The notes under the pieces: generated by a model
Told to the model about the DNA's origin: nothing
What the model saw: only the letters and a program-made list of their open reading frames with translations
The model's database searches: none
In this document: piece by piece, positions 2,243-7,766 of the stretch
Layout: the number at the start of each line of letters is the position of its first letter
How positions within the stretch are numbered: position 1 is the stretch's first letter
Position numbers and translations under genes: made by a program
Virus record (IMG/VR): IMGVR_UViG_3300025571_000022
Coordinates: 1-24,914 of that record
Source: a virus
Taxonomy: Duplodnaviria > Caudoviricetes
Length of the DNA: 24,914 nt
Strand: one strand, 5' to 3'

Positions 2243-2644
2243 GTGGAAAACTGGGTCAAACCTGTTGTAGCTGTGAGCGGCGCGGCCGCCTCTTATCTTT
2301 TCGGGGGGTGGTCGTCGTTGCTTTCGATTCTGCTGACGTTTGTTGTGTTGGATTATGTGACCGGGTTCGCAGCCGCCGCAAAAGAAGGAAGGCTGAACAG
2401 CGAAGTCGGCCTCTGGGGCATCGCGCGGAAGGTGGCGATCTTCGCGGTTGTGGCCGTGGCGCACCTGGTCGACTCGGCACTTGGCGACGCGCATCTCTTC
2501 CGGGATGCGGCGGTGTTTTTCTATCTGGCCAACGAGCTGCTGAGCATCACAGAAAATCTCGGCCGTGTTGGTGCGCCGATCCCGCCGGCTGTTCAAAGGG
2601 CGGTCGAGATCCTGCGCGGGAAGTCGGAGGGGGACCGGCCATGA
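2243..2644 (+). CDS. Phage holin (toxin secretion/phage lysis holin family)
   Basis: LFGGW...DYVTG...LNSEVG..GIARK...FFYLANELLSITENLGRVG signature; TM helices; upstream of lysin. Confidence 0.92.
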   Translation: MENWVKPVVAVSGAAASYLFGGWSSLLSILLTFVVLDYVTGFAAAAKEGRLNSEVGLWGIARKVAIFAVVAVAHLVDSALGDAHLFRDAAVFFYLANELLSITENLGRVGAPIPPAVQRAVEILRGKSEGDRP

Positions 2645-3306
2645 GCGCGGCATCTTTCATCGCCCAAATCGCCCCGATCGCCGTCCAACTGCGCATTGAA
2701 GGATCGCCGATCTTCCCGTCGGTCCGGATCGCGCAGGCGGGGCTGGAGACCGGCTGGAAAATCCCGGCCTGGAACAACCTCGGCGGCTACAAGGTCGGCA
2801 GCGGCAAGCTCACACCGTACTGGCGCGGCAAGGTCGTCAATAAAGGCACATGGGAAGTGTACGACGGCGAGCGCGTGGATGTGACGGCCGCATTCCGGGC
2901 GTATGACAGCGTGGAGGATTTCTTCCGGGATCAAGACCTGCTCTTCCAACTCCCGCGCTATGAGCGCGTGCGGACGGCGAAGACGCCCGAGGAGCAGGCC
3001 GAAGCGCTCCGGCTCTGTGGCTATGCCACGGATCCGGAATACGGTCTCAAGCTGTGCAACATCATCAGCATGTACCGGCTGGAAAAATACGACGAGGAGG
3101 CATGGAAGGTGCTCCAGGAGATCAAGGATCTGAAAAGGAAAGTCGAAGAGCTCGAGAAGCAGCAGGAACGCATCCCGGCGCCGGCGTGGTTCGTCCAGCA
3201 GTTCGGCAGTGCCGATCTCGGCGGCCTGATCAGCGATCCGCATTTCAGCCTCGAGGGCTGGCGGACGCTGGCCGTGGCGCTGCGGGCGCAGAAGGCCCAG
3301 AAATGA
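2641..3306 (+). CDS. Endolysin, GH73 glucosaminidase
   Basis: AQAGLETGW, NNLGGYK, FRAYDS, GYATDPEY motifs; ATG 2641 overlaps the holin stop. Confidence 0.9.
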   Translation: MSAASFIAQIAPIAVQLRIEGSPIFPSVRIAQAGLETGWKIPAWNNLGGYKVGSGKLTPYWRGKVVNKGTWEVYDGERVDVTAAFRAYDSVEDFFRDQDLLFQLPRYERVRTAKTPEEQAEALRLCGYATDPEYGLKLCNIISMYRLEKYDEEAWKVLQEIKDLKRKVEELEKQQERIPAPAWFVQQFGSADLGGLISDPHFSLEGWRTLAVALRAQKAQK

Positions 3307-3309
3307 GCG

Positions 3310-3345
3310 ATCCCCGCTCAGCTATGCGCTGGGCGGGGATTATTT
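3310..3345. terminator. Terminator hairpin between lysin and the convergent accessory operon
   Basis: ATCCCCGCTCAGC-TATGC-GCTGGGCGGGGAT. Confidence 0.7.
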
Positions 3346-4081: not shown

Positions 4082-4110
4082 TCATCCTTTCTATGTGGAT
4101 TCCTGCCTTC

Positions 4111-4175
4111 GCAGGTTGAGCGGAGGCCGCTTGATGCGGCCGCGCCGGGATTCTCGGCGCTCTCCCTAGCCCTGC
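4111..4175 (-). ncRNA. Twister-sister-like self-cleaving ribozyme (three-way junction)
   Basis: Minus strand: GCAGG GCUAG GGA GA GCGCCG-AGAAUCC-CGGCGC GGCCGC-AUCAA-GCGGCC UCC GCUCA A CCUGC; all stems pair; GCNAG and GCUCA internal-loop strands; predicted cut C4118/A4117. Confidence 0.75.
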
Positions 4176-4180
4176 TGGGT

Positions 4181-4438
4181 TCATCTGATTTCCCATGCGC
4201 CATCCACAAACTCACAGTGCGGATATCCATCTTCAAACTTTTTGACCATTTCCCGCGTATTCTCAATGGAATACGTTTTGTTCATCTCTTCCATGACCTC
4301 GACGGCCTTTTCGAGGTCGGGAAGGTGGAGAGATTCCAAGGCCGGTCGCATGGTCTTGATGAAGGGTGAGCGGTACTTAGTCTTTCGAATGAATTCATCC
4401 GCCAACTCATTGAATTTTTGGATCAGCTTTTCTTTCAT
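4181..4438 (-). CDS. Hypothetical protein, about 85 aa, flanked by two ribozymes
   Basis: GGAGG 9 nt upstream of ATG 4438; lower GC than neighbours. Confidence 0.75.
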   Translation of the reverse strand: MKEKLIQKFNELADEFIRKTKYRSPFIKTMRPALESLHLPDLEKAVEVMEEMNKTYSIENTREMVKKFEDGYPHCEFVDGAWEIR

Positions 4439-4466
4439 TCGAATCATCCTCCCATGGTTTTTGTTG

Positions 4467-4531
4467 CGGCTTCCCGCGACCGCCCTGCGGGGCGGTTTCG
4501 GCCCGGAGCCGCCGGGCCATCGTCAGGCGGG
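4467..4531 (-). ncRNA. Type I hammerhead ribozyme with loop II/3'-tail pseudoknot
   Basis: Minus strand: CCCGC CUGACGA U GGCCCGG-CGGCU-CCGGGCC GAAA CCGCCC-CGCA-GGGCGG UC^ GCGGG A AGCCG; intact core, GUC triplet (cut 4478/4477); loop CGGCU complementary to downstream AGCCG. Confidence 0.92.
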
Positions 4532-4946: not shown

Positions 4947-4978
4947 ATTATACAGATAACCCTATACGGTGTATAGGG
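4947..4978 (-). promoter_or_regulatory. SigA-type promoter with palindromic operator over the -35
   Basis: -10 TATAAT (4952-4947), 17 bp spacer, -35 TATACA (4975-4970); inverted repeat CCCTATAC-GGT-GTATAGGG at 4960-4978. Confidence 0.65.
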
Positions 4979-5327: not shown

Positions 5328-5377
5328 GTACGTGCCTACGTATAGACCATTGAGCCGGCATATACGCAGGAGCGTAC
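5328..5377. other. Candidate attP site
   Basis: 50-bp imperfect inverted repeat GTACGTGCCTACGTATA-N16-TATACGCAGGAGCGTAC (14/17 paired) abutting the integrase stop; central dinucleotide GA at 5352-5353. Confidence 0.75.
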
Positions 5378-6786
5378 TATGCCAATATTATCTGTATGAT
5401 GGACCATGCGGCATCTTTACGAATCGTTATCGATTTGAATAAAGACTGAACGACTTGCTTTCGGGTTGTTTGACTGAGCATGTCCCAGTTTTTCTCCAGC
5501 TGATTCAACGCCTCTCGCGCATCGTCTGCCGAAATGGAGGAGGGTGTAGCCGTCGGAAGTTCGGTTAGTCTCTTTTCCAACTCGGCTGCTCGCTCCATTT
5601 CTTCCCTCATGAGCTTCGCGAAATCCTCATATGGCATGTTGCCGTCGCCAAAAGCCATCTGCCATCGATTACGACGCATCTCGCTCTGTTTGAGTTGACG
5701 AAGGATCTCGTCGCGTTCGGTCGAGGATTCCTGTTGATCGTCCCAGGATAAAAGCTCGGGGATCAGGTGGGTTGAGTTAAAAAGCAGCTTTGTTAAGTTT
5801 CGCTCAGAAATGCCGGATTGATCGCATGTCCCGTACTTCGCATTGTTCGTGCATTCATACCCGCGATATAACTGGTTTCCGCGCTTCTTGTTGTATTTGC
5901 CTTTATAATTCCCTCCGCATTTCCCGCATCGTATGATGCCGCTAAAGACATAATCATACGATGTTTTGGATGCCATTCCAGCTTTTCGCCGTTCCAGGAG
6001 TCGTTGCGCGGCTTCGAAAGTTTCAACGGATATGATCGGTTCGTGGCTTCCGTTAACTATGATCCGTTCATCGTCAGATTTGCTCGCGTCCTTCCAATGT
6101 ACCCGGCCGATATAGTGCCAGTTCGTCAGTGTCATCATAACCTTATGTTGATCCCATTTTGCGCCGCGGTTCCTTCTCACGCCCATCTCATTTAAGCGCT
6201 TGGCTATGTTCGTTGATCCTATCCCTGCAAGATATTGTTCAAATATCCAACGTACCCATTTGGCCTCGGAGGGCTTCACGATCAGTTTCCCGTCTTCCGT
6301 TCTCTCGTATCCGAATAGGGGGACAGTAATGTTATGCAGCCCTTTCTTTGCTCTCGTGCTCATGCCCTTTTTGACTTCCTCACTTAAATTTTCTCGGTAC
6401 CATTGGGCGATGATCCCGAGCATGAAAACAAACATCCGACCCATGGCCGAAGATGTGTCGATGTGTTCTGTTACGGATATAAACTTTACATTGTGCTTTT
6501 CGAATAGCTTCATAAGCTTGTGGAGATCGCCGACATTTCGTGTTAAACGGTCCAATTTATGAACCACGACTGCATCAATATTTCCCCGCTCGATCTCCGC
6601 AATGAGTTTCTGAATACCGGGACGTTTCAGATTTTTGCCGGAATAACCGGGGTCATCAAAATATCCAACAAGCGTCCAGCCTTCCTCCTGAATGCGTTTC
6701 AAGTTCCTTTCGCGTTGGGCATCCAACGAATGCCCTTCGCTGGCTTGCTCTTCGGTGCTGACCCGTCCGTACCCTACTGCTCTCAC
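5377..6786 (-). CDS. Large serine recombinase (phage integrase)
   Basis: YGRVST catalytic Ser, DRLTR, recombinase domain, CGKC...C...C zinc ribbon, coiled coil. Confidence 0.96.
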   Translation of the reverse strand: MRAVGYGRVSTEEQASEGHSLDAQRERNLKRIQEEGWTLVGYFDDPGYSGKNLKRPGIQKLIAEIERGNIDAVVVHKLDRLTRNVGDLHKLMKLFEKHNVKFISVTEHIDTSSAMGRMFVFMLGIIAQWYRENLSEEVKKGMSTRAKKGLHNITVPLFGYERTEDGKLIVKPSEAKWVRWIFEQYLAGIGSTNIAKRLNEMGVRRNRGAKWDQHKVMMTLTNWHYIGRVHWKDASKSDDERIIVNGSHEPIISVETFEAAQRLLERRKAGMASKTSYDYVFSGIIRCGKCGGNYKGKYNKKRGNQLYRGYECTNNAKYGTCDQSGISERNLTKLLFNSTHLIPELLSWDDQQESSTERDEILRQLKQSEMRRNRWQMAFGDGNMPYEDFAKLMREEMERAAELEKRLTELPTATPSSISADDAREALNQLEKNWDMLSQTTRKQVVQSLFKSITIRKDAAWSIIQIILA

Positions 6787-6790
6787 AACC

Positions 6791-7402
6791 TCACGCCTCC
6801 TTCTCCGGTCTGAAATGACCCAAATATACGCCGCATATCGTCATTTGATTGGGTTGGACCTCAATGGCTTCGTAACTGTCGTTAGCCGGTTCCAGTCTGA
6901 TCATTGGGGATTCAAGGGACCAGCGGATCCTTTTTAATGTCCCTTCTTCCTGATCATTGATAAGGGCCGCTACAATTTGCCCGTTGTAGTCGGCCCAGGA
7001 TGCTTTTTTGAAATATACTATGTCGCCATCTTCTATCCCAGCACCGATCATGCTATCGCCCTTGACTCGAAGTGCAAAATCCGGCTGCCGTTTCCCCATC
7101 AACGGATATCTTACGTACTCCTCAATATTCTGCTCCGCGAGCAAACCATCGCCCGCGCATATCGTCCCAACAACTGGTATCTCTTCCGAAGATCGTCCGA
7201 TCCCTAATATGCGCTCAATCGTGGTGTCCAAAGCATCCGCATAAAGACCGACATCGTTTATAGGAAACTCTCTTTGCCCGTTTTCATATCTGGATAGTGT
7301 GGATTTAGCCACGCCAACTCTTCGTGCTAGATCATCAAGCGACCAGCCTTTGGCTTCGCGCAATTTCTTGATTTCCCAAATGACTTCCTTCGAACTTCTC
7401 AA
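6791..7402 (-). CDS. CI-like repressor (XRE HTH plus S24 autopeptidase), about 203 aa
   Basis: TTG start after GAGGTG; HTH SLDDLARRVGVAKSTLSRYENG; CAG cleavage site, GDSM Ser, TLKR Lys. Confidence 0.93.
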   Translation of the reverse strand: MRSSKEVIWEIKKLREAKGWSLDDLARRVGVAKSTLSRYENGQREFPINDVGLYADALDTTIERILGIGRSSEEIPVVGTICAGDGLLAEQNIEEYVRYPLMGKRQPDFALRVKGDSMIGAGIEDGDIVYFKKASWADYNGQIVAALINDQEEGTLKRIRWSLESPMIRLEPANDSYEAIEVQPNQMTICGVYLGHFRPEKEA

Positions 7403-7421
7403 TTTGATCACCTCGGGAACA

Positions 7422-7505
7422 ATTTTAACATAAGTGTTCCAAATAGGCAACAAAAATATGCGATTGAATTTTGTCGTTGACAAATGGGAACAAAAGCGAT
7501 AAGAT
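7422..7505. promoter_or_regulatory. Divergent promoters with operators TGTTCCC-N4-GGGAACA
   Basis: Rightward TTGACA(7477-82)-17-TAAGAT(7500-05); leftward TTGCCT(7450-45)-17-TAAAAT with TG; operator-like sites 7435-7452 and 7475-7492 overlap the -35 boxes. Confidence 0.8.
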
Positions 7506-7529
7506 AGGCTCACAAGGAGGTGAACGGAT

Positions 7530-7766
7530 TTGCGATTCAACTTGCAGAAGCTTCGCTATGAAAGGCTCTCTCGACAAATTTCTCAAGATGTAGTAGCTTC
7601 CGCGCTCAAAATCTCCCGCTCCTACTACCACAAAAAAGAGACCGGAAAGGCAAAGATGACAGTCGATGAATTCGCCAAGGTGCTTGAAGTCCTCGAAATA
7701 TCCGAATCCGAAGTTCCAAAATTTTTTACCCTCGATGTTCCCAAACGGGAACAAAACACGGCATGA
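7530..7766 (+). CDS. Cro-like XRE HTH protein
   Basis: AAGGAGGTG RBS; SQDVVASALKISRSYYHKKETG; divergent from repressor. Confidence 0.9.
   Translation: MRFNLQKLRYERLSRQISQDVVASALKISRSYYHKKETGKAKMTVDEFAKVLEVLEISESEVPKFFTLDVPKREQNTA
7736..7753. promoter_or_regulatory. Perfect operator palindrome inside the cro 3' end
   Basis: TGTTCCC-AAAC-GGGAACA. Confidence 0.7.

Follow-up and report, generated by a model that had tools for sequence, protein, structure and literature searches.

Two predicted ribozymes and their product hairpins

We analyzed a stretch of 24,914 nucleotides (nt), hereafter the window, that covers positions 1 to 24,914 of the virus record IMGVR_UViG_3300025571_000022 (Duplodnaviria; Caudoviricetes). 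An operon on its minus strand, located between the genes for an integrase and an endolysin, comprises ORF1, ORF2, ORF3 and then a small helix-turn-helix (HTH) gene. It also carries two predicted self-cleaving ribozymes, a type I hammerhead at the end of ORF1 and a twister-sister-like ribozyme behind ORF2 (Table 1). Both predicted 3' products open with a GAAG-looped hairpin (minus strand, 4477-4466, GCGG-GAAG-CCGC, and 4117-4102, AA-CCUGC-GAAG-GCAGG), just as the initial annotation of this DNA had described. Their 5' arms double as 3' closing strands, the first as that of hammerhead stem I (pairing with 4531-4527) and the second as that of twister-sister P1 (pairing with 4175-4171), and each hairpin therefore excludes the closing stem of its own ribozyme. 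With 0 and 2 unpaired bases in front of them, the hairpins start at or near the processed ends, and Shine-Dalgarno (SD)-like hexamers begin 12 nt (4453-4448) and 11 nt (4090-4085) behind them, which bears out the claim that a ribosome-binding site follows closely. GAAG tetraloop hairpins with at least four Watson-Crick pairs occur nowhere else among the 220 tetraloop hairpins on the two strands of the window, and the positional background for such a hairpin amounts to 3.0% for the hammerhead and 1.2% for the twister-sister-like product.

While the anatomy and the mutual exclusion of hairpin and closing stem are confirmed, the interpretation offered with them, a shared and selected design, is partly supported. 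Its stem part stands, as the downstream strand of the hairpin (the competing arm, or arm, in the following) is enriched over shuffled sequences and covaries with the closing strand; its loop part does not, as GAAG varies in relatives. Covariation in homologous loci had been proposed as a check, and the arm was found to change along with the closing strand in hammerheads as well as in twister sisters. Judged by these comparisons, the competing arm is a real, selected feature of known kinds of ribozyme.

Table 1. Features of the ribozyme operon and its surroundings, in order of transcription
Feature	Position	Strand	Remarks
Sigma-70-like promoter-like site	4975-4947	minus	10/12 matches; -10 TATAAT ending at 4947; shuffle mean for such sites 1.0
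ORF1	4912-4523	minus	129 aa; stop codon coincides with the hammerhead core UGA; 5' strand of stem I lies within the final codons
Type I hammerhead (predicted)	4531-4473	minus	core sequence, three stems, fold, many relatives
Hammerhead stem I	4531-4527 with 4477-4473	minus	
Hammerhead core CUGACGA	4526-4520	minus	
Hammerhead stem II	4518-4500	minus	
Loop II (CGGCU), 5' side of pseudoknot	4511-4507	minus	complementary to 4471-4467; covariation in relatives
Hammerhead GAAA	4499-4496	minus	
Hammerhead stem III	4495-4480	minus	
Hammerhead cut after GUC	between 4478 and 4477	minus	placed by homology
Hairpin 1, 5' end of hammerhead 3' product	4477-4466	minus	4 bp; 0 unpaired 5' bases; about -7.4 kcal/mol
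Pseudoknot partner (AGCCG)	4471-4467	minus	overlaps loop and arm of hairpin 1; complementarity
SD-like GGGAGG of ORF2	4453-4448	minus	sequence
ORF2	4438-4181	minus	85 aa; stop ends 5 nt ahead of the 5' strand of P1
Twister-sister-like ribozyme (predicted), three-way, without P5	4175-4111	minus	sequence, fold, relatives
P1	4175-4171 with 4115-4111	minus	
L1	GCUAG 4170-4166 and GCUCAA 4121-4116	minus	
P3	4160-4142	minus	
P4, with shifted SL4 loop	4141-4125	minus	
Twister-sister-like cut, C-A step	between 4118 and 4117	minus	placed by homology
Hairpin 2, twister-sister-like 3' product	4115-4102	minus	5 bp; preceded by two unpaired A; about -8.8 kcal/mol
SD-like AAAGGA of ORF3	4090-4085	minus	sequence
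ORF3	4075-3542	minus	177 aa
ORF4	3545-3348	minus	65 aa; helix-turn-helix; weak AlpA/excisionase-like matches below cut-off

The competing arm in type I hammerheads

The hammerhead assignment rests on the elements CUGAnGA, GAAA and NUH arranged around three stems with stem I open, and the site is the only one of seven core-pattern matches in the window that has three clear stems. Both cut sites were placed by homology, at the GUC triplet of the hammerhead and, following the accessible text of PMC5660989, at the C-A step of L1 in the twister-sister-like ribozyme. At gathering score, Rfam found neither ribozyme in the window, the best match of the hammerhead being a partial Hammerhead_II hit (E 5.9; 16.5 bits vs. 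37 for gathering). None of the pseudoknotted type I phage hammerhead loci run against Rfam reached the threshold of any hammerhead family, and Rfam therefore appears to be without a model for this subfamily. About 900 viral stretches match one hammerhead pattern alone, though the tested members sit below the Rfam thresholds.

Relatives were collected by pattern scans of viral contigs, from which the best 126 loci of about 900 stretches and the best 127 of about 160 stretches were taken. Loci L001-L311 yielded 157 distinct type I hammerheads, one of which was dropped for its loop size, and 88 with less than 60% downstream identity were retained; these and the other survey sets below are samples biased by the search patterns, and identity filtering leaves shared ancestry in place. 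A strict 4-bp Watson-Crick arm pairing from base 1 of the product is present in 39 of the 88 hammerheads, compared with 6 in a far downstream control, 8 upstream and 4.6-6.9 in shuffles (maximum 15). When arms pairing from base 1 or 2 are counted, the figure rises to 50 of 88 vs. 11.4 in shuffles that kept the first 10 bases (maximum 22). The hairpin loops vary in sequence and in length (3-15 nt), GAAG accounting for 4 of 39, and the distance between arm and closing strand varies as well. Four phage records alone contain seven clear hammerheads, six of them with an arm pairing from base 1, loops of AUAU, GAGC, AAG, GAAG, AAGC and AGCG, and one triple change (CCGU/ACGG/CCGU). Among hammerheads from a genome scan in which stem I was left free (best 124 loci of about 520; 58 parsed, 56 kept, 39 non-redundant), the arm was present in 21 of 39 vs. 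7.9 expected (maximum 14).

The base that completes the hairpin depends on the first base of the product. Of 40 G-starting products, 34 have C behind CCG, while the 15 A-starting ones have C three times, U four times and A eight times there (p = 1e-5); with an A-starting product the C is thus lost, and full compensation is uncommon. Joint occurrence of GUGG with CCAC is weak evidence for covariation, with 4 of 5 rows (2 non-redundant), but CCAC also present in 14 of 70 GCGG-type products. In one compost run, related contigs match the window from 4533 to 4465 only, a segment ending with the arm, which suggests that the exchanged hammerhead unit may likewise end with it.

A feature overlooked in the initial annotation is a pseudoknot that overlaps hairpin 1. 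The tertiary contact expected between loop II and the stem I region is represented by a 5-bp complement (4511-4507 with 4471-4467), and because of this complementarity hairpin 1 excludes the pseudoknot as well as stem I. Loop II pseudoknots of at least four pairs occur in 50 of the 88 non-redundant hammerheads vs. 20% with swapped loops, and they covary strongly (GG-C loops with G-CC in 27/27, GG-U with A-CC in 21/21, GG-A with U-CC in 5/8 cases). According to the accessible text of PMC3088659, such a pseudoknot has been reported in about 40% of hammerheads, and in one example of type II fast cleavage depends on it. In the window, the pseudoknot partner supplies three of the four arm bases and two loop bases of hairpin 1, and the leading G of GAAG belongs to stem I as its fifth base. 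No separate explanation is thus needed for the hammerhead loop GAAG, as it is set by stem I plus the pseudoknot partner.

This overlap raises the question of whether the window hairpins are by-products, the first made up of the pseudoknot partner plus one base and the second of complements provided by the C- and A-rich linkers that precede the SD sequence behind twister sisters. The strong pseudoknot covariation is in line with such an origin, and 21 of the 50 hammerhead arms, the one in the window included, have at most one base outside the pseudoknot helix. However, 23 of the 50 lie wholly outside that helix, arms clear of the pseudoknot partner at +11 to +25 number 27 of 88 vs. 6.8 expected (maximum 15), and in G-starting products with a CC-G partner the hairpin-completing C follows in 17 of 18 cases. 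For twister sisters, local shuffles do lift the expectation to 14 of 56, but these ribozymes keep a 5-nt arm across eight loops in the absence of such a pseudoknot (see below). The by-product explanation is already largely refuted at the level of the families, and we regard it as very unlikely for the window.

Twister sisters and a variant without P5

The second ribozyme shares the P1-L1-P2 region with twister sister (Rfam RF02681; three-way 5T5A and four-way 5Y87 structures, PMC5660989, accessible text), including GCUAG/GCUCA, the C-A cut step and a P4 hairpin with AAG in its loop. The conserved residues G5, C6, A8, G9 and G59-C60-U61-C62-A63 are found in GCUAG and GCUCAA and are invariant in 6 of 6 aligned copies; the A7-to-U change is tolerated in twister sister as far as the accessible part of PMC5660989 describes. 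Unlike the structures covered there, the window variant has P3 but no P5 hairpin, its junction being P2-P3-P4, and instead of the SL4 loop G29-U-G-C-A-A-G-Y-C37 it has G-CAUCAAG-C, in which AAG is shifted one place 3' and G31 is missing. Because P5 is missing and SL4 is shifted, we call it twister-sister-like and not a member of RF02681. That model at gathering score matched neither the window nor the same variant in loci L001 and L003, but it did match canonical twister sisters of both P1-strand classes described below, in one set 11 copies among 20 loci submitted. The variant occupies the same phage operons as canonical RF02681 members. It recurs in 7 of 16 loci of the first pattern scan (5 distinct), the other nine looking like chance matches, and P3 has five pairs changed on both sides among six aligned copies. 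P3 without P5, the shifted SL4 (CAUCAAG) and P3 covariation are seen at window positions 4175-4111 and in L001, L003, L005, L006 and L008. The upstream copies of L006 and L008 as well as L003 have a degenerate 5' half or a mismatched P1, yet downstream hairpin and SD sequence are kept. Minimal twister-sister relatives with L1 only can cleave according to the accessible text of PMC11620745.

The arm of hairpin 2 is kept in 7 of 7 homologous loci. For a broader view, scans for twister sisters (the first scan, a second with 38 loci and a third with the best 131 of about 620) were combined into 132 distinct rows, of which 7 were dropped (short P1, odd length, two by hand with implausible P1), leaving 125, of which 56 were non-redundant. 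A 4-bp hairpin starting at base 2-4 of the product is present in 30 of the 56, as opposed to 6 in a far control, 9 upstream and 10.5-14.2 in shuffles (maximum 22). The arm follows the P1 strand: GCAGG occurs in 5 of 8 products with a CC-starting strand and 1 of 47 with a GG-starting strand (p = 9e-5), a CCC arm in 29 of 47 GG-starting and none of 8 CC-starting ones (p = 1e-3). As the CC and GG types are two lineages, this covariation comes near to one evolutionary event seen many times. The loops vary within each class, which is added evidence that the arm is kept; the 5-nt arm persists across GAAG, GAGG, GGAAU, GGAA, UACA, UGGA, GAUG and AUG. With eight different loops in CCUGC-type twister sisters and 4 of 39 in hammerheads, GAAG can no longer be seen as the common design for which it had been taken, and a functional GAAG tetraloop is ruled out.

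Other ribozyme architectures and lineages

A type III pattern gave 70 loci, and a type III hammerhead could be parsed in 8 of them. None of these 8 has an arm opposing stem III, compared with 50 of 88 that have an arm in type I (p = 0.002), and 7 of the 8 products are predicted to be paired from base 1 by their own stem I. For pistol ribozymes, 38 of 126 loci from a viral pattern scan were parsed (32 non-redundant), the cut being set at what we take to be the pistol cleavage position. A strict test returned 10 of 32 vs. 3.5 expected (maximum 8). In 306 genomes, pistol searches turned up four matches. The competing arm is clear in two classes, hammerhead and twister sister, and at most weak in pistol.

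Several clostridial hammerhead products fold from base 3. In cyanobacterial type I hammerheads (L444, L454, L462, L474, L522, L541, L561), 5' hairpins of up to 9 bp bury the pseudoknot partner. Another recurrent element, a pseudoknot-like motif CGGC ... GCCG combined with a second covarying helix, is located 10-15 nt after hammerhead and twister-sister cuts (L018, L043, L149, L165, L180, L184, L200, L202, L214, L245, L313, L359, L372, L377, L429, L430) and is followed by an AT-rich stretch resembling a promoter on the opposite strand; it had no Rfam match at E 0.01 among 20 loci submitted.

Folding predictions and position of stop codons

Folding during transcription was predicted from nearest-neighbour energies that leave out pseudoknot and tertiary terms. 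Predicted pairing of stem I stays at 0.99 up to base 11 of the product and drops to 0.79 at base 14 and 0.02 at base 29; beyond nt 29, with the freed 5' strand then able to pair with the SD region downstream, the hairpin state of the hammerhead prevails. P1 pairing is predicted at 0.99 through base 14 and at 0.03 from base 17, once the arm has been transcribed. Before loop costs are counted, the pseudoknot helix left out of these predictions could contribute as much as about -10 kcal/mol, and the hammerhead precursor therefore probably stays active despite the arm. In the released products, hairpin probability is predicted to be at least 0.98 at 37, 50 and 60 C, and family-wide predicted pairing is concentrated in the first 2-5 nt.

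In 90 of 110 hammerheads, the upstream ORF ends at a stop codon that overlaps or adjoins the 5' closing strand, and the same holds for 46 of 54 twister sisters; an opposite-strand control gave 17 of 109 and 18 of 55 but is imperfect, as the core itself supplies a stop triplet. The core UGA is the upstream stop in 45 of the 110 hammerheads, as in the window (4525-4523), and in 45 more the stop is within about 15 nt of the core start. Given this position, terminating ribosomes would cover the 5' closing strand.

What the competing arm may do

Among the functions offered for the hairpins in the initial annotation, shielding of the new 5' end appears to fit the comparative pattern best, because the arm is missing in the eight type III hammerheads, whose product is already paired. 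The two predicted ribozymes would cut the phage operon into single-gene messages. As folding predicts, the closing stem, stem I or P1, would form first during transcription, and the active fold may then be held by the pseudoknot in the hammerhead or by the L1-SL4 contact in the twister sister until cleavage takes place, presumably in the cell. The arm, in essence a short downstream copy of the 5' closing strand, would capture the orphaned 3' strand at the new 5'-OH end after the cut. The base-paired 5'-OH end may slow 5' decay of the RNase J type, and as a side effect the hairpin would make release one-way. Two reports in the accessible text of PMC11780869 are relevant here: RNase J1 degrades the 5'-OH product of glmS, and where a hairpin follows an RNase Y site, it determines product level by way of RNase J1 and not by changing cleavage efficiency. 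That shielding from 5' decay is the effect for which the arm has been selected seems to us an evenly balanced proposition, and the most probable of the explanations considered. Shielding, release and tuning can coexist.

Several observations weigh against selection for a shielding arm. About 45% of the relatives do not have a strict arm, and the hairpins are weak, with median minimum free energies of -5.9 and -5.1 kcal/mol for the first 25 nt. With A at position 1 the first pair is mostly lost and not compensated (U in 4 of 15), most GCAG-starting hammerheads have no arm (3 of 7 have CUGC or UUGC), and the 21 genome hammerheads unlike viral representatives give a borderline 9 of 21 vs. 4.4 (maximum 9). 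The type III control is small and comes from other lineages, and pistols, in which the product start is an orphan strand as well, have no excess in two relaxed tests (14 vs. 11.0; 6 vs. 4.9) nor by folding energy. A Salisaeta phage and cyanobacteria, where RNase J may or may not be present, have arms as well. In the twister-sister-like ribozyme, the hairpin is predicted to lie about 2 kcal/mol below P1 already in the uncut RNA, which fits tuning equally well. Finally, RNA ends were not observed. Ten sequencing runs contain small shares of the window; the four examined consist of low-depth contigs, from which ends cannot be read, and in the three RNA runs among them neither ribozyme was covered.

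The arm could instead mainly drive product release and prevent re-ligation or re-annealing by displacing the 5' product from stem I or P1 and from the pseudoknot, which would render the cut irreversible and detach the ribosome-binding region downstream from the core of the ribozyme. The exclusion of both stem I and pseudoknot by the window hammerhead hairpin would suit this role, the predicted duplexes holding the products together are strong enough to slow release (stem I -10.6, pseudoknot helix -10.7 and P1 -9.8 kcal/mol), and folding energy of the product 5' end correlates with closing-stem strength (Spearman 0.41 and 0.47), though shared G+C would also give that. Type III hammerheads, however, also have to release a closing stem, yet none of the eight has the arm, and with the stop codon next to the 5' closing strand a terminating ribosome could strip off the 5' product anyway. 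We consider release as the main function doubtful.

Under the tuning explanation, the arm attenuates cleavage kinetically: as a rival of stem I or P1 before the cut, it would limit cleavage to a fraction of the transcripts, and when a ribosome that completes the upstream gene opens the closing stem, the arm would hold the ribozyme in its inactive fold. The predicted loss of P1 pairing while the arm is transcribed (between nt 14 and 17), the late switch in the hammerhead and the stops at the closing strand of most relatives, often on the core UGA itself, all point in this direction. The energies, however, omit the pseudoknot and all tertiary contacts, and presence of the arm is not associated with a nearby stop (51 of 90 vs. 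8 of 20 hammerheads, p = 0.22; 23 of 46 vs. 6 of 8 twister sisters, p = 0.26). Prophage tandem hammerheads are cleaved efficiently in 2-kb transcripts according to the accessible text of PMC3088659, though those hammerheads may or may not have had arms. Attenuation is, in our view, quite unlikely to be the main role.

Lastly, the arm might keep the freed strand off the downstream SD sequence or be a direct repeat that arose when a mobile ribozyme cassette inserted. The CCUGC strand of twister sisters does resemble an anti-SD sequence, armless loci L394 and L407 fold CCU onto AGG, and the arm is indeed a direct repeat of the 5' closing strand. But when the arm is forced to be unpaired, predicted SD pairing hardly moves (0.42 to 0.40; 0.46 to 0.50), most freed strands are G-rich and unable to pair with the SD sequence, and the repeat stops at the paired bases (matches in the 3 nt beyond, 0.93 vs. 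0.90; n = 15). SD rescue as a general function is ruled out by the unchanged SD pairing, target-site duplication as origin by a repeat that does not extend past the paired bases, and either explanation is extremely improbable.

Going beyond shielding, unrelated ribozyme classes in phages may have converged on a portable cassette for mRNA maturation, consisting of a ribozyme on the upstream stop, a self-folding cap formed with the closing strand of that ribozyme and an SD sequence. The arm would then work as a ratchet: after a cut it caps the product, but should a terminating ribosome open the closing stem before cleavage, it shuts the ribozyme off. This is a speculative idea to which we assign little probability; if true, the amount of message from the next gene that is freed and stabilised would depend on translation of the gene before it.

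Phage setting of the operon

The window belongs to a temperate phage, with a serine integrase at 5377-6786, a CI-like repressor at 6791-7540 and an endolysin at 2308-3306; genes for DNA polymerase, helicases and exonuclease are located further right. The promoter-like site at 4975-4947 is the putative operon start. An 8-bp perfect inverted repeat (4978-4960) overlaps its -35 region and is possibly a repressor operator. The endolysin gene and the ribozyme operon converge, and a terminator-like 14-bp hairpin between them (3309-3341) could terminate transcription of both. ORF1, ORF2 and ORF3 have no Pfam family above cut-off and no PHROG match. Nine relatives of ORF1 were found, and since one of them is from a Paenibacillaceae genome, a host among the Bacillota is likely. 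No relatives of the locus were reached in viral contigs by way of the flanking proteins.

Comparison with known systems and significance

The closest counterparts of the window hammerhead are the prophage tandem hammerheads described by Perreault et al. (2011; PMC3088659), which are likewise of type I, have a loop II pseudoknot, reside between small phage genes and have been proposed to process mRNA into single-gene units; that tandem ribozymes split prophage operons is already known from that work. Unlike in the window, no downstream arm refolding the 3' product is described in its accessible main text, to which the comparison is confined, the supplements lying outside it. A second parallel is provided by the RNase Y sites of Bacillus subtilis cggR-gapA and glnRA (PMC11780869, accessible text), where a cut after the first operon gene likewise leaves a downstream product with a hairpin at its 5' end. 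In the window, by contrast, the cut would be RNA-catalysed and leave a 5'-OH, and the hairpin of 4-5 bp is built from the closing strand of the catalyst itself and is therefore stable only once the active fold has been given up; an effect on decay is demonstrated for the RNase Y hairpins and would have to hold for those of the window.

Like the window ribozymes, glmS is a self-cleaving ribozyme in Bacillota mRNA that leaves a 5'-OH downstream product. Whereas that product is degraded by RNase J1 (PMC11780869, accessible text), the product in the window would be protected and translated.

RiboJ and other synthetic ribozyme insulators obtain a defined 5' end from a hammerhead with a hairpin and a ribosome-binding site behind it. 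The RiboJ hairpin is an added, separate element, while that in the window is natural, overlaps the closing stem and competes with it.

A literature search that covered mainly open texts, with most subscription papers, the 2014-2015 discovery papers and supplements outside it, returned no description of a conserved competing arm, nor is one described in the accessible parts of PMC6154101, PMC5737381 and PMC11620745. Differential stability of ribozyme-cut pieces has been suggested with no mechanism given, and the role of many self-cleaving ribozymes beside phage genes has been described as largely unknown (both PMC6765202, accessible text). The window adds a predicted twister-sister-like architecture missed by Rfam. 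Ribozymes that are assayed or reused without the next 10-20 bases miss part of the natural unit, and the arm would allow catalysis to be separated from product fate by single-base changes. The selected element belongs to the 3' product and not to catalysis, and a product equipped in this way would be meant to last, in favour of mRNA maturation and against triggered decay; the arm may thus be a clue to why phages carry self-cleaving ribozymes.
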